From: a virus
Taxonomy: Duplodnaviria > Caudoviricetes
Virus record (IMG/VR): IMGVR_UViG_3300016476_000568
Coordinates: 1 to 30,472 of that record
Direction: 5' to 3' (one strand)
DNA: 30,472 bases
Below are positions 338 to 27,474 of this stretch, piece after piece; position 1 is the first letter of the stretch, and each line of letters opens with the position of its first letter. Made by a program: the position numbers and the translations under genes. A model generated the notes under the pieces. That model was not told where the DNA came from, made no database searches, and was given only the letters and a program-made list of their open reading frames with translations.

Positions 338-584
338 ATCCAGCAGCCGTCAGGTCTGCTTCTTCCGTGGCGTCAATAATGTTTTCGTGTCCACCGAAAT
401 AGATTTTTTCTATCATGTCAAAGGTGGCTGGCTGGTTCTCTGTGTACCCGCCGTCTGTCAACTTGTACACGTTGCGTCCACGAGGTCCGTTGGCTACACG
501 GGCGAATAGCCGTGATTCTGGGCTGTTGTCGTATAGGTCTGTCCAATACACAAAGTCATCTGTTGGTGGACGAAACACAGCCAT
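312..584 (-). CDS. Hypothetical virion-module protein, probably leaderless
   Basis: 90 aa ORF after the capsid gene; TGcTATTAT ends 6 nt before the ATG. Confidence 0.8.
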   Translation of the reverse strand: MAVFRPPTDDFVYWTDLYDNSPESRLFARVANGPRGRNVYKLTDGGYTENQPATFDMIEKIYFGGHENIIDATEEADLTAAGYGEYIEAS

Positions 585-590
585 ACATTC

Positions 591-599
591 ATAATAGCA
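591..599 (-). promoter_or_regulatory. Extended -10 promoter (TGcTATTAT) for a leaderless mRNA
   Basis: Predicted +1 coincides with the A of the ATG at 584. Confidence 0.55.
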
Positions 600-627
600 A
601 AAGCCCCCCGCCTTTCGGACAGGGGGC
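599..627 (-). terminator. Rho-independent terminator after the major capsid gene
   Basis: GCCCCCTGTCC-GAAA-GGCGGGGGGC-TTTT. Confidence 0.8.
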
Positions 628-12405: not shown

Positions 12406-14376
12406 TCACAGCCATGATGGACGCCACTGGCGGGGTGGCAGTTTGAACTGTGACAAGTTCGGGATATTCAAAGCAGCCATCCACATAGACATAACAATGT
12501 CTGTGCCGTTCTTTTTGTCACGGGTCCACTTAGTTAGTTCTTCTACAGCAGCGAGGGTTTTCCAGTTGCCACGCATATGAGGGAGACGAATAGCGCCTGT
12601 ACGGAACAATGGTGGTAGTAAAGCCTCCACGCCCATTTTCTCGTCCAGTTTGTTACGGGACGTGGTGTGTGGAATGACGTTTACGCCCATACGGGTTTGC
12701 CATTTCCGCACAAAGTCGTGCGCTAGAAGGAATCGTTGGGCTGCGTTGATTTCTACTACCCAATGTGAGATGGGGTAACCCATACGGAAGGAGCGTTCTT
12801 GCCAGTCTTCCATGATTCCTGTGTATTCACCTGTGGTGGTGTTGTAACCCAACAGGTCTTCGGCGGTTAGTTTGCACCGTTCAATGTCTATAACGTGGTA
12901 CAGGTTTTGGTTGGGTTGGTACAGAATCCATGTGAGCGCCCAGAACATCGTTGGGGAGGGGTCCACCGAAACAATGGACAATACGGGCGGTGCCAAACCA
13001 GCAGGTATCTCCCCATGTCCCCGTTCATGGTCAATACATCCTGGATATTGAACACCATCTTGTCCGAGTCCACCGTGAATCCAGGTTTTGTCAATGAGGT
13101 ACGCATCAAGGTCTAGTTCTCCTTGTTGATATACAACTTCAAAAACATCAGGTTTGTTGTAACGAATAAAGGATAGGTCTTTCCAGGGGAGACGTTTGGG
13201 GTCTAGGAGTGGCCCGTCTGGGTAGGCGGGTGCGTCAAATCGGCGGGATTCTTTCCCTGTGTCCAACTCTGGATAGTACGCCTGATAAATGATGTGTTTG
13301 TATTTGCTGGATTTGAGGGGTTCCATCGCATTGACCTGTTCAGGCGTAGTGACATCGGAACCGTCATAATCCTCATCATCCAAATCATAGGTAACTTTTG
13401 CGAGGCAATGTGCGTATAGGTCGCCTGGTCCGAGGCGCTGCCCAACAACAGCCAGCAACCCTCCTGGGTCGCAACGTGCTTCCGCCACGTTGTCCCATCT
13501 TTCAAGAAGTTTGTCACGGGCGACAGATTCACGGGCGTTGTCTGGGGACGCAACATCGTCAAATAAGCATAGGTCTGCACGGTGTCCGATGAATTCTGCT
13601 TCAATACCGTAAGCACGAACTGTAGGTTCTTTGTTATCAAGGCCATTCCCATCTAGTTGTTCCACCACAAATTCTTCGGCTCGCCATAATGCGCCTTTAT
13701 CTGTGGGTTTGAATCGTCCATAGTCTATGGATAGGCATCCTTTGGCGTTTTGTGCCAGCCCTTTAGCGACCAGTTGTGGGTCTGGTTCTATCGGCATAGG
13801 ACGTTCTAGGGTTTCACGGATACGGCGGGAGTACATCTTCGCCATATTTTGCGATACCGAGCCAATCATCACACGAATTTTGCGGTCACGAACGATAGCC
13901 CATACAGCAACATCGTGGAACAGGGTGGATTTGCCTGCGCCTGGGGGGACGTTGACGACTACGAATTCTTTTTCTTCCGACTCCAACAGTTTTACAAGTT
14001 CAAGTGCGGCTTCAACCTGCCACGGAGAAGGAACACGCCCCAAATAGTATTCACGAAAGAACGCAAAGTCCTCTTTACCTCGTTTTGCTTCTTCACATAA
14101 CTGGTCATCACCAAGAGCAGACGGCAATTCAATAGCATCCATAAACGAGTTGTACTCGTCACGCTGTCTACCGCCCTGGTCACGGACGTGTTTCTTCGCT
14201 GTGGCCTCTGCCGCATCAGCAGCAGCCTGCGCCGCTTTCGCTTTCTTCAACCATTTAGAACCAGTATTGACGTGTACACCTGCAGTTCTAGCGGCTTGGG
14301 TAATGGATTGGCCTGCGGAGATAGCAGCAAAGAATTTTGCTTTATCTGCTGGTGAGACTGAACGTTTTGTTCCCAT
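12406..14376 (-). CDS. terL: Terminase large subunit with N-terminal HTH
   Basis: Walker A VPPGAGKST, Walker B LCLFDD, nuclease SVDPS, VVEINAAQ, DIVMSMW; ATG at 14376 follows TGgTACTAT. Confidence 0.93.
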   Translation of the reverse strand: MGTKRSVSPADKAKFFAAISAGQSITQAARTAGVHVNTGSKWLKKAKAAQAAADAAEATAKKHVRDQGGRQRDEYNSFMDAIELPSALGDDQLCEEAKRGKEDFAFFREYYLGRVPSPWQVEAALELVKLLESEEKEFVVVNVPPGAGKSTLFHDVAVWAIVRDRKIRVMIGSVSQNMAKMYSRRIRETLERPMPIEPDPQLVAKGLAQNAKGCLSIDYGRFKPTDKGALWRAEEFVVEQLDGNGLDNKEPTVRAYGIEAEFIGHRADLCLFDDVASPDNARESVARDKLLERWDNVAEARCDPGGLLAVVGQRLGPGDLYAHCLAKVTYDLDDEDYDGSDVTTPEQVNAMEPLKSSKYKHIIYQAYYPELDTGKESRRFDAPAYPDGPLLDPKRLPWKDLSFIRYNKPDVFEVVYQQGELDLDAYLIDKTWIHGGLGQDGVQYPGCIDHERGHGEIPAGLAPPVLSIVSVDPSPTMFWALTWILYQPNQNLYHVIDIERCKLTAEDLLGYNTTTGEYTGIMEDWQERSFRMGYPISHWVVEINAAQRFLLAHDFVRKWQTRMGVNVIPHTTSRNKLDEKMGVEALLPPLFRTGAIRLPHMRGNWKTLAAVEELTKWTRDKKNGTDIVMSMWMAALNIPNLSQFKLPPRQWRPSWL

Positions 14377-14428
14377 GAGTGTTGCAAATAGTACCACACC
14401 CCTGTAGAGTTGGTGCTGAAATAATTAT

Positions 14429-14457
14429 TTGCCAAAATAAATTTCAACCTATATAGT
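14429..14457 (+). promoter_or_regulatory. Sigma70-type promoter for ncRNA 1
   Basis: TTGCCA-N17-TATAGT; +1 near 14464. Confidence 0.7.
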
Positions 14458-14463
14458 GTTAGT

Positions 14464-14661
14464 AGAGAAATAACGAAGCAGTAACGGCGGGACTGCACAA
14501 ACCAGCGACTAAGGCGTCCTACACAAGGGCATCGTATCCAACTAAACCTTCTAAACACAGCCTTGAAAACTGTGGGATACGGTGAAGATGCAGGGACATT
14601 ACGGCGCAGTTTGAACCACAGGTTTAGGTGGTCGTGGGTTCGGCTCCCATCTTATTTTTCT
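14464..14661 (+). ncRNA. Putative tRNA-shaped structured RNA with expanded anticodon-arm domain
   Basis: Terminal stem, D-like arm, long central arm, variable arm, T-like arm and an 8-bp loop pairing. Confidence 0.65.
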
Positions 14662-14669
14662 GCTACACT
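14661..14669 (+). promoter_or_regulatory. Extended -10 promoter for ncRNA 2
   Basis: TGcTACACT; predicted +1 coincides with the first stem at 14675. Confidence 0.6.
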
Positions 14670-14674
14670 ATGTA

Positions 14675-14932
14675 GCGCAACAGAGCAAGTCCCCCACGAT
14701 GGGAATCGTTAGGGCAAGCAGGGCTGTACCTCATTTGCACGAGGCGGGGCGTTTAATACACGGGAACGTGGGTTGATGTTTCCTGCAACCAAGCAAACAT
14801 TAAGTAGTTGATTGCCCCTGTTGCGTAAGAGAAACAAGCAGCGTCATCAACGTCATATGATGAAAACATGGTGTCGGCTAGAATTGCCACGGCGACCAAG
14901 AACATATTGTTCTGAACTGTGGGGGAGGCTAT
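14675..14932 (+). ncRNA. Putative large multi-pseudoknot RNA
   Basis: Many nested stems, two GNRA tetraloops, three long-range pairings, no ORF. Confidence 0.65.
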
Positions 14933-15005: not shown

Positions 15006-15361
15006 AGAGAAAACATGAACAAGCGTGATGCCCAGGTCCACCTCGGAGGGTTACTTTTCTTTTTTCTCTTTTTTTCTTTTGAGAATATTCAACTGCTCTA
15101 GAAGAAGAACCTCACAGACGTTCGGCCCGCCCAGACATATGTAAAACACGGACAGCAACCCACCCCATTCCAGAGCCAACCAACTTGCCAACCACACACG
15201 TCAGACCCCACCAACAACACAACACGGCACACACCAAAAGAGTGAAACCATCCCTCTCTGATATATACATACATAGCGCCCCCGTAGCCTCGGCAGACCC
15301 CCAGTTGCGGTAGGTTTTCTACCTACTAGACGGTAGGGACATTGCGTTACGCTACCCAACC

Positions 15362-15620: not shown

Positions 15621-15665
15621 AGTAGGCATAGAGGAACGGGGCAACCCGAACTAGTAGATAGAGAA

Positions 15666-15703: not shown

Positions 15704-15898
15704 ATGGCAACAGAGAGGTGCGAAGTGTGCGGTATTAGTTGGGAGACATACGAGGCAACCCAACCAGACTGCGAGGGTGGCGAGGAGTGCCACGATTGGG
15801 AAGACTCTATGAATGATGACGAAATGCCAGAGGGTGAGAACGTCATTATCGGCGGGCAGAGCGCCTACAAGGTGGGCGGGTTCATTACTTGGGATTAG
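15704..15898 (+). CDS. Small acidic Cys-rich early protein
   Basis: MATERCEVCG...; AGAAAGG RBS. Confidence 0.7.
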   Translation: MATERCEVCGISWETYEATQPDCEGGEECHDWEDSMNDDEMPEGENVIIGGQSAYKVGGFITWD

Positions 15899-15954
15899 CC
15901 GAAACGCCTACGGGCGTCTACGGGGGATAGTCTCCCCGTACTGACGAGGCAGAC
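15898..15954 (+). ncRNA. Hammerhead ribozyme, type II
   Basis: GCC-GAAA-CGCC(TACG)GGCG-TC^-TACGGGG(GATAGTCT)CCCCGTA-CTGACGA-GGC-AGAC; complete catalytic core. Confidence 0.92.
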
Positions 15955-15973
15955 AAATAGAAAGGGTCAGATA

Positions 15974-20016: not shown

Positions 20017-20064
20017 AGTGACCCTCGTGTGATGTCCCCCCTTCCGTCACACGGGGGTCACTTG
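20017..20064 (+). ncRNA. C6-loop hairpin A (putative sRNA; may also act as the convergent terminator)
   Basis: 18-bp stem with G-U pairs on the + strand, loop TCCCCCCTTC, preceded by TGtTACACT at 20004-20012. Confidence 0.55.
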
Positions 20065-20330
20065 TATGTACGGACAGGTGTGGGGGCGTACTCTAACTGT
20101 CCTCGTTCACGAGGGGATAAACCCCCGAACATTCCGAAGCGGGAACGTTGCCCTTTCTCGTGTTCCATAGCATATGCTAAGCACTGCGTTGTTACTTCGC
20201 ATTGACGGCAGAACTCACGGGCTTTGTCATACACATTGTCTTGACCCCCTGGGTTGTCGGGGAAAAAGATTTCTGTTGGCACTCCACGACAAGACGCTTT
20301 CTCTTGCCAGTCGGGGCGTTCCAAAATCAT
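20058..20330 (-). CDS. whiB: WhiB family transcription factor
   Basis: WQEKASC..FFP..C..C.V...CL..A....GMFGG.S..ER. Confidence 0.95.
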   Translation of the reverse strand: MILERPDWQEKASCRGVPTEIFFPDNPGGQDNVYDKAREFCRQCEVTTQCLAYAMEHEKGQRSRFGMFGGLSPRERGQLEYAPTPVRTYK

Positions 20331-20527: not shown

Positions 20528-20711
20528 GTTCTACTTCCGACATTGGTGTGTCCTCTGTGTAGATACGGACTACAAGGATACAGGGGTCGCCCCCTTCGTC
20601 CCATTCTTTTTCTTCCGCTTCGGATTGGGGTACACCTTCGTGGGTGTCACACGCTATGCGTGAGCAGAACCCGTGTTCCCTGCCGATTGCTATCCATTCG
20701 TGTAGTTCCAT
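20517..20711 (-). CDS. Small phage protein (C..C.TH.G.P...W..G.DPC)
   Basis: TAATG overlap at 20711. Confidence 0.75.
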   Translation of the reverse strand: MELHEWIAIGREHGFCSRIACDTHEGVPQSEAEEKEWDEGGDPCILVVRIYTEDTPMSEVERDH

Positions 20712-21526
20712 TACAGACCGCACATCCCTTCACATTCTTGATTGAATAAAGACAAGATACCTTTTTCTTCTTTGGTTCTTAGGTCAGCCTCAGCCAACGG
20801 CACCTTTGACTGGTGTAGATACGGAGTCCCACGGTAACGGGCAACTAGATGTGGCAGTGTGCGTAAAGCATTATCAAACTCCACAGCATCAGCCCATTCT
20901 TCTTCGTTCTCCCGTAACGCCCGCCATTCGTCAGCGTTCTTGAAAGGACACCCAATGCAGGCGGAACGAGGGGGGAGTGCGTACCCTTTTTCGGCGCACC
21001 AATCCAAACAATCTTGTCTGGTGATGCGCTTGTCAATCAGTGGGTATTCGTGTTGTATCCACGAGAACTGTGGGTCTTTGATGCGTTGCACTTCGTCCCA
21101 AGAGATACCGATAATGGTTGTGATGCGGTGTTCTTTGCAGCGTTGACCTGATTTCAGACCAGCCAGTTCTCTTTGCTTCTTCATCAGTGGGGCAAGTTTG
21201 TATTCGGCTGTGCATTGACGGCGCACCATACCTTTCTTGCCGTCCTCACCAATAAGGTGCAATGGCATAGAGGCGTACCGTTTCCCGTCAGTCAGGAAAT
21301 CTTCCCTGATGTTTCCCTTTGACACCATATGGAATGGCATCTTTGCTTCTTCCATTAGCCCTTTGAGATAGTCAAGGTGTTTGTACACAGCCTTTGGTTC
21401 CCAGCCTGTGTCGGCAAAGATAACGTGGTCGGCTCGTTCTACTTCACCGTGCAACATCATCAGCAACAAGGTGGTTGATTGCACCCCTGCCCCCAACGAT
21501 AAAACTCTTAGAGGGTATTCACTCAT
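20711..21526 (-). CDS. PAPS-reductase-like PP-loop (adenine nucleotide alpha hydrolase) protein
   Basis: SLGAGVQST, FADTGWE, RQCT..YK..P, IGISWDE, SACIGCPF, terminal CEGMC. Confidence 0.85.
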   Translation of the reverse strand: MSEYPLRVLSLGAGVQSTTLLLMMLHGEVERADHVIFADTGWEPKAVYKHLDYLKGLMEEAKMPFHMVSKGNIREDFLTDGKRYASMPLHLIGEDGKKGMVRRQCTAEYKLAPLMKKQRELAGLKSGQRCKEHRITTIIGISWDEVQRIKDPQFSWIQHEYPLIDKRITRQDCLDWCAEKGYALPPRSACIGCPFKNADEWRALRENEEEWADAVEFDNALRTLPHLVARYRGTPYLHQSKVPLAEADLRTKEEKGILSLFNQECEGMCGL

Positions 21527-21614
21527 TGTCTTTCCTTTCGTACCACCAGTTCAGTGCTGTCGCAACCAGTACACAGTACAGGAGTATGAGTATGGGTGCG
21601 TACAGGAAGAACAC
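21519..21614 (-). CDS. 31 aa hydrophobic peptide, not in ORF track
   Basis: GTG start overlapping the ssb stop; MFFLYAPILILLYCVLVATALNWWYERKDNE. Confidence 0.5.
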   Translation of the reverse strand: MFFLYAPILILLYCVLVATALNWWYERKDNE

Positions 21615-22015
21615 TAGAATGGTTCTTCGTCCGACAGTGCTGGCATTTGCTTACCGATAAAGCCTGTCTGCGCCATTACCTTTTCGGTTTGGTCAGCAAC
21701 CCAAGCGTTCCAGCGGCAGGAAGCACCAACTTCGTCTGCGATTAGTTTGCGGGCGACACCTTTTGTGCCGTCTTTCTTGGTGTATTCCTCTTGCTCAAAG
21801 CGACCCGTGATGATGACGCTTGTGCCTTTGGTGATGGTGTTGGCTACGTTCTCTGCGAGTTTGCCGAACACCATAATGTCCCACCAGGTTGTTTTCTTTT
21901 TGTCATCTTTGCCGTAGTTGTCTGCCACGGTGAAGGTGAGTACGGCGTTTCCGCCTTGTGAGAAACGGAGGTCTGGTTCTTTACCGACTGTTCCGTGTAC
22001 GGTTACATTGTTCAT
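21614..22015 (-). CDS. ssb: Single-stranded DNA-binding protein
   Basis: OB-fold motifs G....P.LRF, GKLAEN, acidic EEPF tail. Confidence 0.93.
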   Translation of the reverse strand: MNNVTVHGTVGKEPDLRFSQGGNAVLTFTVADNYGKDDKKKTTWWDIMVFGKLAENVANTITKGTSVIITGRFEQEEYTKKDGTKGVARKLIADEVGASCRWNAWVADQTEKVMAQTGFIGKQMPALSDEEPF

Positions 22016-22029
22016 TTGTTTCTTCCCTT

Positions 22030-22674
22030 CTAAGGATTGAATAGTGGCAGTGGTACATCTACCCCTGACCAGTTTACTTTGTTCACGATGTTTATCAACT
22101 TTGGTGTATTTTTATCGGGTCCGAAAGCCAGATAAGTTCCATCAACAGAGTCAACACCCCATTGTTTTGCTAACAACATTCGTTTGAAAGAGTTTACTCT
22201 ACCCATATGTACCCATATGGATAAAGATTTTGCTTTTTGGCACATTTCTTTTGCTGTGTTTGACAATTTGAATTCTGTTGTGCCTCCAATAAACAAACAT
22301 CCCATTGTTTCCCACGGGATTGTTGCTTCTTCTGCCCCGTCTTGGAGAACAAACGCTGGTTTGTACCCCAGGTCAGCAACCGTTTTATAATAGTGGTTCC
22401 ATCTTTCAACAGTCTTATCGTGGTCTGCGACCACATCGGGAACCGTGGCAAATAAAGCATCCTTTGGATTGTCAAAACTTTTAAGCCACGAAACCCACAC
22501 GTTTTCGTCCCATTTCTCAGCGAAGCACCCGTTATCAGCAGCCCAAGACCACTGATACGGGGACGCTTTCGTGCTTCGTTGACTAAATGGTGTAAGCATC
22601 ATTCCTATGCCATTATCTTGTAATGCTTTTTGGATTTCAAGATTTGAAGGCAGGCATCCGCTTAGATAAATCAT
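22030..22674 (-). CDS. TGT-fold protein, candidate DpdA-like DNA deazaguanine transglycosylase
   Basis: DNGCF (cf. DSGGF), PDVV, VLQDG, FIGG, VHMGRVN, DSVDGT in TGT order; adjacent to VUT gene. Confidence 0.65.
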   Translation of the reverse strand: MIYLSGCLPSNLEIQKALQDNGIGMMLTPFSQRSTKASPYQWSWAADNGCFAEKWDENVWVSWLKSFDNPKDALFATVPDVVADHDKTVERWNHYYKTVADLGYKPAFVLQDGAEEATIPWETMGCLFIGGTTEFKLSNTAKEMCQKAKSLSIWVHMGRVNSFKRMLLAKQWGVDSVDGTYLAFGPDKNTPKLINIVNKVNWSGVDVPLPLFNP

Positions 22675-23176
22675 TCGCAATCCAAATCAAAACACCACCG
22701 ACTAAAGCCATTTGTGTTTTGCCGATAACCTGACCTTGCCAATACTGGGTTGAGCCAAAAGCAATTTGTAAGAACACGAACGAGTCAATGACCCCGCCAA
22801 TAAAACCTGACGAGACTACAGCGCCAACTAGTGTTTTTTCTTTGAGGTTTGAATACACCAAAAAGTCTGCCAGTTCACCCAATGCGAAGGCTACTGCGCT
22901 GGCAATGGCTACGGCAGGGTTGATGAAGTACGACAGAAGGACACCAACACCCATAGCCTGCAATGTGGTTGTCTTGCCATATGTGTTTTGCACAATGTCA
23001 CGCATAAACATCGCAATGCCAATCATCAGAACACCTGATGGGGCGTTGTACCCAAACCCTACTGGGATTGTGTGTGGTCCTCCTGGAAAAAATTGAGTTC
23101 CTACATTGGAAATCATCCAGTTGGCAATGGGAATTGTCGCTAAGTACAAACTGATTAGTGTGATTTTCTTTCTCAT
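22637..23176 (-). CDS. VUT/YhhQ family queuosine-precursor transporter
   Basis: Multi-TM; ANW, RDIVQ..YG, IASAVAF..GELADF.VY, DSFVFL.IAFG, GQVIGK. Confidence 0.88.
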   Translation of the reverse strand: MRKKITLISLYLATIPIANWMISNVGTQFFPGGPHTIPVGFGYNAPSGVLMIGIAMFMRDIVQNTYGKTTTLQAMGVGVLLSYFINPAVAIASAVAFALGELADFLVYSNLKEKTLVGAVVSSGFIGGVIDSFVFLQIAFGSTQYWQGQVIGKTQMALVGGVLIWIANDLSKRMPAFKS

Positions 23177-23337
23177 TTTGTTTCTTCCTTCTTTGGTTGG
23201 AGATTTACTATCCGCATCGCCTTCTTTGGGCAGGGGTGTTGCGGTGGGCTTGTCAATGTCACATACGTTGTGACTGACACATTGCAAGATGGGCAGTACC
23301 AATCTTGTCTGAGACTTATTCCCTTCATTGCGCTCAT
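23173..23337 (-). CDS. 54 aa zinc-ribbon-like protein, not in ORF track
   Basis: WYCPSC...HPC; ATGA overlap with the VUT gene. Confidence 0.65.
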   Translation of the reverse strand: MSAMKGISLRQDWYCPSCNVSVTTYVTLTSPPQHPCPKKAMRIVNLQPKKEETK

Positions 23338-25204: not shown

Positions 25205-25370
25205 TTTCCCACGCCTCCTGAATCAACATTCGTAACGCTTGTGATTTGCTGACACCACGAGACAATGCGATTGTTTCAATCTGTTGGAACTGTTTACTTG
25301 TGACCCGTAAACCAATGAAGCGGGTTGATGCCACTTCACCTTCGGGGTCTACTGTTTTCTTAGCCGACAT
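25185..25370 (-). CDS. Ribbon-helix-helix DNA-binding protein
   Basis: FIGLRVT...IE.IA..RGVSKSQALRMLI. Confidence 0.72.
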   Translation of the reverse strand: MSAKKTVDPEGEVASTRFIGLRVTSKQFQQIETIALSRGVSKSQALRMLIQEAWENVQEPF

Positions 25371-26083
25371 TACTGTGCCTTCTTCGCTTCTTGGAAAGCC
25401 TTACGCAAAGCGTTCAGGTCTTTCTGTGTAGCGAAACCAAACTTCACATTGGCGTCACGATAGATGGTGATAGGGCTGAGGTTCGCTTGGGTGCAAGCCT
25501 TGTTGAACGCTTCAATCTGTTGCTCTGTCAATGGTGCGTCAGGGTTTAACGCTGGTTCTGTTGGCTTTTGTTGTGGCGTTGGCTTTGCGGGTGTGGGCTT
25601 TGGCGCTGGCTTATCACCATCAAGGTCTGCCCACTGGTTCTTAGTCCACAAGTTCAGTGAGATACCGAAACGCATAGACGCATTACGAAGGAAGTCACCG
25701 ATAAGTTCTTTGTCAAGGTCTACCTTGTCTGCTTTGACTGACCCGACACCAAGCATTTCTTTGCCGTGTACTGTGAGCCAGCCCCACATAGTTGCCATAC
25801 CGTTCTCAACGTGGATAGCGGGACGTCCATTCACCCAGCCACAGGGTTCCCATGACCAGTATGGGTCAATCTCAATGAGGATACGGGTGATGTCTGCGTG
25901 ACCTACGAAGTCCAGTTTCACTCCACCTTTGGGGAGTTGCTGAACGATTGATGGGTCTGGCTTGGCGTAGTCCTTGAGGATGTTACGCAGTTCTTTTTCT
26001 TTATTTGTTTCCATTGGTTGTACCTTTCTCGGTGTTTGATATGTGTAAGTGATGTGCTGTTCGTTGTATTTCTTTTCGTCCAT
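25370..26083 (-). CDS. Rad52/Sak-like single-strand annealing protein
   Basis: LDFVGHADIT..L..IDP.WSW, KELIGDFLRNASMRFGI...LW; follows YqaJ. Confidence 0.8.
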   Translation of the reverse strand: MDEKKYNEQHITYTYQTPRKVQPMETNKEKELRNILKDYAKPDPSIVQQLPKGGVKLDFVGHADITRILIEIDPYWSWEPCGWVNGRPAIHVENGMATMWGWLTVHGKEMLGVGSVKADKVDLDKELIGDFLRNASMRFGISLNLWTKNQWADLDGDKPAPKPTPAKPTPQQKPTEPALNPDAPLTEQQIEAFNKACTQANLSPITIYRDANVKFGFATQKDLNALRKAFQEAKKAQ

Positions 26084-26085
26084 TG

Positions 26086-27033
26086 TTACTCCCCTTTCAA
26101 GCGAAGTGTTCTACTGGTTGATGTCTTAACATACTTGTCGTATGTGTCAGGGTTTTCTGCTTGGAACTTCTTGGCGTCAAACCAGTCCCGCTTGTATCCC
26201 TTCCACGTTGCTACGACAGTGCCGTTGATTGTGGCTGTTTCATTTGCCCCAATCAGTTCACACAACTCAGCCTTCAAACGGTCCTCCATCTGTTTATAGG
26301 ATGCAAGTTCACTCTTGACGTGTTTGAGTTGGGCGATTAAATCCGCTACTGATGGTTCAAGTTCAACAGGGTTTGAATCTGTTTGTTGGTAGCGGGTAGA
26401 GATTGATTCATAGGAGTACACAACTCCTGGTGGGTCAATGCCGAGAGCGATGTTGTTCAGCCATGCTGCTGTGGCGTTGATGTGTTCTTCTTTCTCCTCG
26501 TCTGTGACGTTCTGTTCTACAAGGGTGAGGCGAAGTGTGTTGTCAAAGATTGCCCAGGTCACACGAGTGGCGTCTGAGCAGATTGCTTGCTGTACACCCT
26601 GGATACGCCAGTAGTCGGGCAGTGTGCCTGAGTATTCACGGCTTGTTGTTTTTACTTCAAGGATGTGTTTGGTGTCTTCGTTCCAGCCGTCAAGGGTGGA
26701 GATGAGGTGTGACCCGTTGTCATCGTCATAGCAGAACAACTCGTCAGGGGTGACGAACTTGATTCCGAGACGGTCACCTGCCCATTGGATGATGGTGTCT
26801 TCTAAACGGTTGCCTGTTTCCATTGCAGCGTTAGGTGGGATTGGTGTTGGTGCTACGCCTGACAGTAGTTCTGCTGCGTATACGTCTTGCTTGACGAATG
26901 GGTGCAGGCCGTAGATTGCTGCGGCTGCTGATGCTGAGATGCGGCGGTTGCCGTTGTCATCTTCGTAGCGTTGGTTCAACCATTCTTGTGAACCGTGTGG
27001 TGCTTTGGCAATGCGGTAACGCTTGTGTGCCAT
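26086..27033 (-). CDS. YqaJ-like viral recombinase exonuclease
   Basis: EWL..R, ISAS, GN.LE, STLDG, LEVKT, P.YW..Q..QQ. Confidence 0.9.
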   Translation of the reverse strand: MAHKRYRIAKAPHGSQEWLNQRYEDDNGNRRISASAAAAIYGLHPFVKQDVYAAELLSGVAPTPIPPNAAMETGNRLEDTIIQWAGDRLGIKFVTPDELFCYDDDNGSHLISTLDGWNEDTKHILEVKTTSREYSGTLPDYWRIQGVQQAICSDATRVTWAIFDNTLRLTLVEQNVTDEEKEEHINATAAWLNNIALGIDPPGVVYSYESISTRYQQTDSNPVELEPSVADLIAQLKHVKSELASYKQMEDRLKAELCELIGANETATINGTVVATWKGYKRDWFDAKKFQAENPDTYDKYVKTSTSRTLRLKGE

Positions 27034-27082: not shown

Positions 27083-27111
27083 ACCATACAGGAAGGTTGT
27101 GTCAATTGCAA
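27083..27111 (-). promoter_or_regulatory. Promoter of the recombination/DNA-metabolism operon
   Basis: TTGCAA-N17-TATGGT; downstream palindrome TACATA-N5-TATGTA (27060-27076). Confidence 0.6.
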
Positions 27112-27368
27112 GGGGTAAGCACAAAAGTTTTTCTGACCATACCGACAGGGATATGGAACAGGTGGATTCCTTCACCTTCGTGGTACGACTGGAGCAGTGT
27201 GACGTGGTGTTCTTTAGCGCCTGGTTCACCAACAGGGATGAGGAAACCTACGGTTTGTACGAGGGTTTCGCCGTCATCTTCTACTTCTTCTAGTGATAGC
27301 CAGCCTGGTTCACCACCGCAGGCGTCTGCCCATTCAATGAGAACGATTGCATAGTTATTGTTCGTCAT
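27102..27368 (-). CDS. Conserved-type phage hypothetical protein (W.DA....W...VG..IP.GMV)
   Basis: Start moved to MTNNNY. Confidence 0.75.
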   Translation of the reverse strand: MTNNNYAIVLIEWADACGGEPGWLSLEEVEDDGETLVQTVGFLIPVGEPGAKEHHVTLLQSYHEGEGIHLFHIPVGMVRKTFVLTPCN

Positions 27369-27474
27369 CTGCGGGTGCGCCTTCTGTGCGACATTCAGGA
27401 CAGTATCTTCCTTGCGACTGGTGCCAAGCCTCACCGCAGGTGGGGCAGACGTAGATGTGAGCCAGAGATGTCAT
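27355..27474 (-). CDS. 39 aa zinc-ribbon micro-protein, probably leaderless, not in ORF track
   Basis: YVCPTCG...YCPEC; TACAAT ends 6 nt before the ATG. Confidence 0.65.
   Translation of the reverse strand: MTSLAHIYVCPTCGEAWHQSQGRYCPECRTEGAPADDEQ

Follow-up and report, generated by a model that had tools for sequence, protein, structure and literature searches.

A conserved pseudoknotted RNA beside the terminase gene of freshwater actinophages, a candidate primer for DNA synthesis

Introduction

According to the cited passages, the plasmid ColE1 replicates without an initiator of its own from an origin located downstream of a G-rich stretch that is essential, and mitochondrial CSBII works in a similar way (PMC5043065, PMC6317783, PMC3167613). 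The portions of the literature cited here describe ColE1 RNA II and the mitochondrial LSP transcript as RNA primers, each anchoring an R-loop where the sequence is rich in G (PMC5043065, PMC6317783, PMC3167613, PMC5333043). In DNA packaging, prohead RNA (pRNA) is, in the sections cited, reported only in phi29-like phages and thought to replace part of the large terminase (PMC5066667), and in T7 it is transcription reaching the concatemer junction that sets off packaging, according to the cited section (PMC3276506).

Here we describe a real RNA family outside Rfam that is near-universal in its clade, a widespread and abundant clade of freshwater actinophages with genomes of 36-41 kb. Like ColE1 RNA II in the passages cited (PMC5043065, PMC6317783), it combines a folded body with a G-rich stretch on the 3' side and, going by the ORFs scanned, occurs where no initiator is recognisable. 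By analogy, we propose, at somewhat less than an even chance, that it may act in cis to prime the synthesis of DNA toward the inferred genome end, in the manner of RNA II.

Results

The window, the whole 30,472-nt stretch of DNA analysed, is a 30.5-kb phage record (78% complete) with its capsid, portal and terminase genes all on the minus strand and small plus-strand genes beginning at 15665. The large terminase subunit (terL; 12406-14397, minus strand; 663 amino acids; PHROG 38 and 4102) carries an N-terminal TerS-like segment, is divergent from the RNA and has distant relatives in Streptomyces BF phages and T7 gp19. SSB, RusA and WhiB (20058-20330, minus strand; Pfam PF02467, E 6.8e-18) are also encoded, and because of WhiB we take the host to be actinobacterial. 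A single-strand annealing protein and a RecE-like exonuclease (25370-27033, minus strand; PHROG) are the only non-structural genes present in all 11 genomes compared. RecE is adjoined by a small protein (27102-27434, minus strand) found in 5/5 genomes first compared, for which we detected no Pfam or PHROG family and, in the ESM Atlas, only unnamed viral clusters. At 20711-23302 (minus strand) PAPS-reductase-like, Vut_1 transporter-like and unknown genes are clustered, perhaps as a base-modification module.

Upstream of the RNA lies an extended -10 promoter (TGnTAnnnT, here TGcTACACT; 14661-14669, plus strand), from which transcription would start at about 14675-14677. Most homologues listed have a similar element at a distance that tracks the length of the RNA, and a promoter-like element is present in 19/21 copies of the type 3 RNA described below, so that the promoter named in the first-pass annotation is a conserved feature. 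That annotation had read 14661-14932 as a compact RNA with several pseudoknots. All complementary segments that it listed are present, and the region folds better than 200/200 shuffles (z -3.59). We then counted paired cells for each of its ten stems across 45 homologues. Three stems hold with compensatory changes, namely CCTC/GAGG (178/180), CACG/CGTG (180/180) and TGTTTC/GAAACA (265/270), the last of which had been taken for a pseudoknot and is a nested stem. ACGAT/ATCGT (128/214) is part of an optional 5' hairpin missing in many homologues. The remaining six are unsupported: GCGCAACAG/CTGTTGCGT (262/404), GGGCAA/TTGCCC (133/270), GTTTAAT/ATTAAGT (123/301), the long-range pairing TTTGC/GCAAA (145/225), TCCCCCAC/GTGGGGGA, which was thought to clamp the two ends (266/360), and GGTTG/CAACC (187/225, no two-sided change). 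Pooled, these six are 63.0% paired as compared to 63.1% in shuffled alignments (332/500 shuffles). The overall fold drawn in the annotation is wrong, as is most of its long-range wiring.

A corrected model of 54 pairs was derived from a covariation alignment of 46 type 1a sequences. It leaves 96.4% of the cells paired, compensatory, two-sided changes are present in 30 of its pairs, and 0/500 shuffles reach any of these measures; slid controls are 33-43% paired, a lenient comparison as the model was drawn from the same sequences. RNAalifold recovers P2-P7 independently. As judged from sequence comparison, the core (14719-14926) is a conserved, structured and covarying RNA, a multi-way junction in which a 4-bp P1 closes P2, P3, a variable P4, P5, P6 and P7. 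The optional 5' hairpin P0 (14689-14715, plus strand; 128/214 cells in alignment A1) is absent or different in many homologues, and minimal copies of the RNA begin just ahead of P1. P1 itself (14719-14722 with 14918-14921, plus strand, closing 14719-14921) consists of two pairs that never vary, one that is G-C or G-U and a position that is loose, and, because none of them changes on both sides, this weakest helix is drawn from conservation.

P2 (14723-14750, plus strand) consists of P2a (14723-14725/14748-14750; 98.5% paired), a conserved 3x3 internal loop, P2b (14729-14732/14741-14744; 98.9%) and an apical loop, with two-sided changes in 7/7 pairs. Bases 14735-14738 of this loop pair with 14838-14841 (14735-14841, plus strand), and in 105 parsed sequences the partners are TTGC/GCAG (91), TCGC/GCGG (7), TCGC/GCGA (5), TTGC/GCAA (1) and one mismatch, a covariation in which pairs within and between molecules look alike. 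The pseudoknotted character proposed before stands, but the true pseudoknot is this loop pairing and not one of those listed in the annotation. P3 (14758-14773, plus strand) is a hairpin with a GNRA-type tetraloop, 100% paired with two covarying pairs, and a related module is retained in types 2 and 3. The P4 domain (14777-14836, plus strand) comprises P4a (14777-14782/14831-14836; 98.2% paired), P4b (14784-14789/14820-14825; 99.3%) and P4c (89.7%), and is followed by the hairpin P5 (14844-14863, plus strand; 92.0%, 4/5 pairs covarying) with a conserved ACG in its loop. P6 (14870-14897, plus strand) is the most conserved helix and near-invariant, its 5' strand being exact in 64/66 and 52/54 protein-anchored copies and changed in a compensatory manner in L337/L339. 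The bulged base 14894 in P6 pairs with 14917, the base preceding the 3' strand of P1, canonically in 194/199 sequences (G-C 118, C-G 48, T-A 27, T-G 1, C-A 5). P7 (14900-14912, plus strand) is a variable hairpin (95.7% paired, 4/4 pairs covarying). Invariant residues are concentrated in P6, the internal loop of P2, and P3.

These pairs also bear on the idea that the element acts as single-stranded DNA, as a priming or packaging signal, and never as RNA. It lies near the inferred terminus and the RNA is predicted from sequence, but many one-sided changes keep G-U pairs on the RNA strand, the P3 loop is GNRA-like and the promoter motif moves with the 5' end, and we consider a DNA-level role very improbable.

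Occurrence was surveyed in overlapping locus sets whose members are not independent genomes. In a first terL-anchored set the slot beside terL was filled in 71/80 loci (67 direct matches, two rewired RNAs and two contigs cut through the RNA), the other nine having less than 700 nt of upstream sequence. In a second set the RNA model matched in 55/80 loci, all divergent from terL; among the remaining 25, type 3 was present in 22 (21 full, one cut) and three were cut contigs, giving 77/80 for the slot, and no locus carried both a model match and type 3. In a third sample 22/24 in-clade loci matched. The in-clade loci L501 and L502 (terL 71% identical) gave no match to either RNA profile in 1486 and 2480 nt of upstream sequence; they may have lost the RNA, carry a further type or have a longer cargo region. 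Pattern scans added 107/119 and 103/119 true loci, and about 480 and 510 stored stretches are estimated, chance matches included. A high-GC look-alike, L334, had no model score and was discarded.

According to a rough classification, in which at least one locus (L127) was put in the wrong type, type 1a, which includes the form in the window, accounts for 90 loci, type 1b, with P4 as a plain hairpin, for 60, and type 2, in which the pseudoknot partner has moved inside P4 and the loop partners covary, for 23. Type 3 is a distinct fold of about 170 nt (for example L384, 2506-2691, minus strand, and 20 more loci) that replaces the RNA in one subclade; besides a promoter motif of its own it shows the P3 module, pseudoknot-like pairs that covary and a tail of G6-7, and P6 is missing. 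Promoter, direction, last position before a downstream DNA motif and the 3' G-tract persist across the folds. Outside the clade, 52/53 outgroup loci had no match to these RNA profiles, and searches starting from two single outgroup terminases returned no loci. L509 (terL 31% identical) gave a weak type 1/2 match (E 1.5e-5). In L469, another outgroup locus, a promoter-like motif, hairpins and a G6 run appear to precede a comparable DNA motif, some 1200-1330 nt upstream of terL.

The first-pass annotation recognised no family for its compact RNA, and scans for known RNAs likewise place this pseudoknotted RNA in no Rfam family. With Rfam 15 covariance models, the best of the hits at the locus (E up to 10) reached 14.1 and 10.8 bits (E 6.6-9.6), the highest score for type 3 was 20.2 bits, the cut-off being 36.2, and ARAGORN found nothing at the locus. 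In 13 homologous loci Rfam gave nothing except a hammerhead elsewhere. In the window a type II hammerhead ribozyme (15897-15958, plus strand; 57.6 bits) begins where an early ORF of 77 aa has its stop, and one is also present in L007. A ribozyme-like RNA was one of three functions suggested before; such a ribozyme could be self-cleaving or end-processing, with a putative active site at P6, P1 and 14894:14917. The clustering of invariant residues in P6, the P2 internal loop and P3, the near-perfect covariation of a single long-range pair and the hammerhead encoded by the same phage would suit such an activity; type 3, however, fills the slot without P6, and no Rfam ribozyme matched, which makes a catalytic role quite unlikely in our judgement.

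The RNA ends in a G-tract (14921-14928, plus strand; G5 here), the first G of which is in P1 and the rest without a conserved partner. As the first-pass annotation had noted, the terminal G-run is a conserved feature: all full copies checked retain a G5-8 tract, with G5-7 in 54/54 full model matches of the protein-anchored set, G6-7 in 21/21 type 3 copies and G5-8 in 199/199 sequences found with search patterns that required the tract. No terminator is predicted after the RNA in the window, and only 25/196 sequences have a U-tract in the next 60 nt, both of which support the primer reading. An antisense promoter of the extended -10 type, the type searched, occurs inside the RNA in only 8/169.

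Downstream, a conserved DNA motif (15261-15306, no strand assigned), identified by conservation in homologous loci, may be a terminus or packaging signal. It is found 135-427 nt past the G-run in 58/86 distinct loci, in 0/67 upstream controls and in 18/21 type 3 loci. A resemblance to the terminal repeat of the BF phage WRightOn was not significant, 41-246 of 300 shuffles being as good. The WRightOn genome is bounded by a repeat of about 264 bp, and the start of its terL lies 659 nt in from the left end; going by gene order, the ends of the phage studied here are probably between the RNA and 15665.

This position would also suit a packaging function, the second of the earlier suggestions. The transcript or a paused polymerase could mark the terminus as in T7, or the RNA could belong to the motor in the way of phi29 pRNA, its pseudoknot then joining separate copies. 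The RNA always adjoins terL and is directed at the conserved terminus-like motif, 49/91 contig ends lie no more than 600 nt beyond the G-run (a biased count, as flank lengths differ), and BF phages also hold a structured stretch in the slot. RNA type moreover tracks the terL tree, with nine changes against a shuffled mean of 48 (one of the 99 proteins looks mis-extracted), although linkage alone would explain this. A phi29-type RNA is weakened by the finding of types 1b and 2 on terminases 99.7% identical, and the large terminase, part of which pRNA may replace according to the cited section (PMC5066667), is present in full here. Taken together, we regard a role in packaging as rather unlikely.

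The slot houses further RNAs. At 14465-14660 (plus strand) a separate, optional RNA, with a promoter of its own (14429-14457), is closed by an acceptor-like stem and includes a T-arm like that of tRNA; it has homologues in six loci, is found in 3/80 terL loci, folds with a z of only -1.0 and matched nothing in Rfam or ARAGORN. A further conserved element, about 60-70 nt long and with a GTTGG/CCAAC-type closing stem, recurs as cargo immediately upstream of the RNA promoter in L231, L232, L240, L259 and L260. In cultured BF Streptomyces phages (L205, about 375-625, minus strand; L428-L433) a hairpin-rich non-coding stretch with some covarying pairs lies between terminal repeat and terL.

Copies outside these phages and signs of transcription were sought as well. 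No match was found by blastn in cultured phages or in plasmids (PLSDB, E 1). The sections of the literature consulted contain no account of this RNA; a fragment may sit among the 10,006 candidate viral RNAs (up to 151 nt) aligned in PMC10690425, four supplementary files of which contained no match. Four of five pattern matches among all GTDB species are chance and the fifth is real, on a terL-bearing contig. L200, a 10.9-kb contig with a type 1b RNA beside terL in a bin labelled Crocinitomicaceae (Bacteroidota), is probably a misbinned phage contig. Among 151 Actinomycetota genomes there were 0 credible matches, the sole model match (18.1 bits) looking like coding DNA. A 224-nt contig from metatranscriptome run X1 (depth 7.1; assembled contigs only) matches the extent of the RNA; it is no proof of expression, since a terL contig reaches a depth of 10.5 in that run and assemblies tend to break at conserved islands anyway.

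These data can be set against a trans-acting ornate RNA like raiA, manA, ROOL or GOLLD that would bind a host protein or RNA or form an oligomer, the slot serving as an RNA gene store; partners could be, for example, the tRNA CCA end via UGG, or the ribosome. tRNA genes and other T-arm RNAs share the slot (T-arm pattern in 14/147 loci, some spurious), P6 is invariant, the GNRA-type loop is kept, and the metatranscriptome contig corresponds to the RNA in extent. The other slot RNAs are optional, however, whereas this one is near-universal and always last before the DNA motif, and neither the GTDB nor the Actinomycetota search yielded a host counterpart. We hold both the general proposal and its example partners to be fairly improbable.

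Finally we looked for genes of replication. Of 31 genomes with a completeness of 92-100%, none gave a match above the cut-off for DnaB_C, Toprim_2, Prim-Pol or DNA_pol_A, with the helicase and primase of WRightOn as positive control for DnaB_C and Toprim_2; below the cut-off there were four weak DnaB_C matches in terL-sized frames and two weak polymerase matches. PHROG scans of selected ORFs from 11 genomes (33, 90 and 61 proteins) revealed no initiator, many ORFs being without a family. In 18 outgroup genomes (13 at least 90% complete; terL 31-55% identical) DnaB_C and Toprim_2 were likewise found in 0/18. As the outgroups, nearly all of whose loci are without the RNA, also lack primase and helicase, the missing primase is not tied to the RNA, the attempted correlation does not discriminate and the argument from absent primase is weak. 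The outgroups may carry still other folds in this position; alternatively, the entire group may do without such an RNA and replicate by recombination. Third-position G/C skew, used to test the direction of replication, gave a mixed picture: the genes on the RNA strand are more G-rich in 4/4 genomes having them, yet codon families disagree, and G008 is opposite.

Discussion

Among the three functions raised in the first-pass annotation, ribozyme, packaging-associated RNA and replication pre-primer, the pre-primer fits best, because even a change of fold leaves the G-tract, the promoter, the orientation and the slot in place. Host RNA polymerase would transcribe the RNA, the folded 5' body would prevent re-annealing and the G-tract would anchor a persistent RNA-DNA hybrid; borrowing from ColE1, host RNase H may trim the RNA and host Pol I extend it. 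The product might recruit the host restart primosome to a genome that the RecE/annealing pair of the phage has circularised or joined; alternatively, it might do no more than copy the short terminal repeat ahead of packaging.

Several observations argue against the primer reading. Most genes lie on the opposite strand, so that whole-genome replication from the RNA would be head-on. The spacing between G-run and motif varies (135-427 nt), antisense control is not seen (8/169), and L501 and L502 are without a match. A ligand-binding or catalytic RNA would be just as compatible with the near-invariant P6 and the fine tertiary pairs, a G-tract left free might instead have a CCA end or some other RNA as its target, and BF phages, which encode primase and helicase, keep a hairpin-rich stretch in the slot with no conserved G-tail.

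Near-universal retention together with exchangeable folds suggests a core job in the life cycle. A broader and more doubtful possibility is that exchangeable, tertiary-folded primer RNAs have replaced initiators and primase in freshwater actinophages, a ColE1-like RNA origin in a tailed phage; in the same doubtful scenario at least four architectures that share only the tetraloop module and the 3' G-tail might start replication or build the terminal repeat with host enzymes alone. Priming, if true, would explain how 36-41 kb phages in which no replication proteins are recognisable initiate copying or complete their ends. Should the RNA have another role, it would still lend itself to ribozyme screens and cryo-EM, for which nature supplies both minimal (about 170 nt) and rewired variants.

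GOLLD, ROOL, manA, ARRPOF and EGFOA are, like this RNA, highly structured, without an assigned function and often phage-borne, as far as the cited part goes (10.64898/2026.07.01.735769). Rfam scans and the descriptions in the portion cited (PMC12286853) set them apart, types 1 and 3 having no Rfam score above gathering. With raiA (RF03072) the RNA shares a length of about 200 nt, an actinobacterial context, a G-rich 3' part and, as a generic feature, an internally looped hairpin whose apical loop is in a pseudoknot. raiA, in contrast, is chromosomal and has a long three-segment P1, compared with 4 bp here; a conserved PK1-P6 linker is lacking in the phage RNA, and a feature described for raiA is absent from alignments A1 and A3. 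Neither model scores the other and model R1 misses a raiA locus, so we dismissed identity with raiA, as portrayed in the cited excerpts (PMC10861870, PMC12968392), and regard the resemblance as superficial.

The RNA has in common with phi29 prohead RNA that a phage encodes it and that its loop pseudoknot might join separate copies; unlike in the phi29 motor, the large terminase is complete and RNA types swap on near-identical terminases, and the motor type sets the two apart. CSBII, which forms a hybrid G-quadruplex, differs from the phage RNA with its single G5-8 run, elaborate tertiary fold and bacterial host. Compared with ColE1 RNA II, the phage RNA is shorter (about 150-250 nt versus 550) and phage-borne, with no conserved antisense RNA I promoter and no plasmid sequence match, whereas the dedicated promoter and the G-rich stretch of a ColE1-type primer are both present. 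It resembles the mitochondrial LSP transcript, in the parts cited (PMC6317783), in being a short RNA whose terminal G-run could anchor an R-loop.
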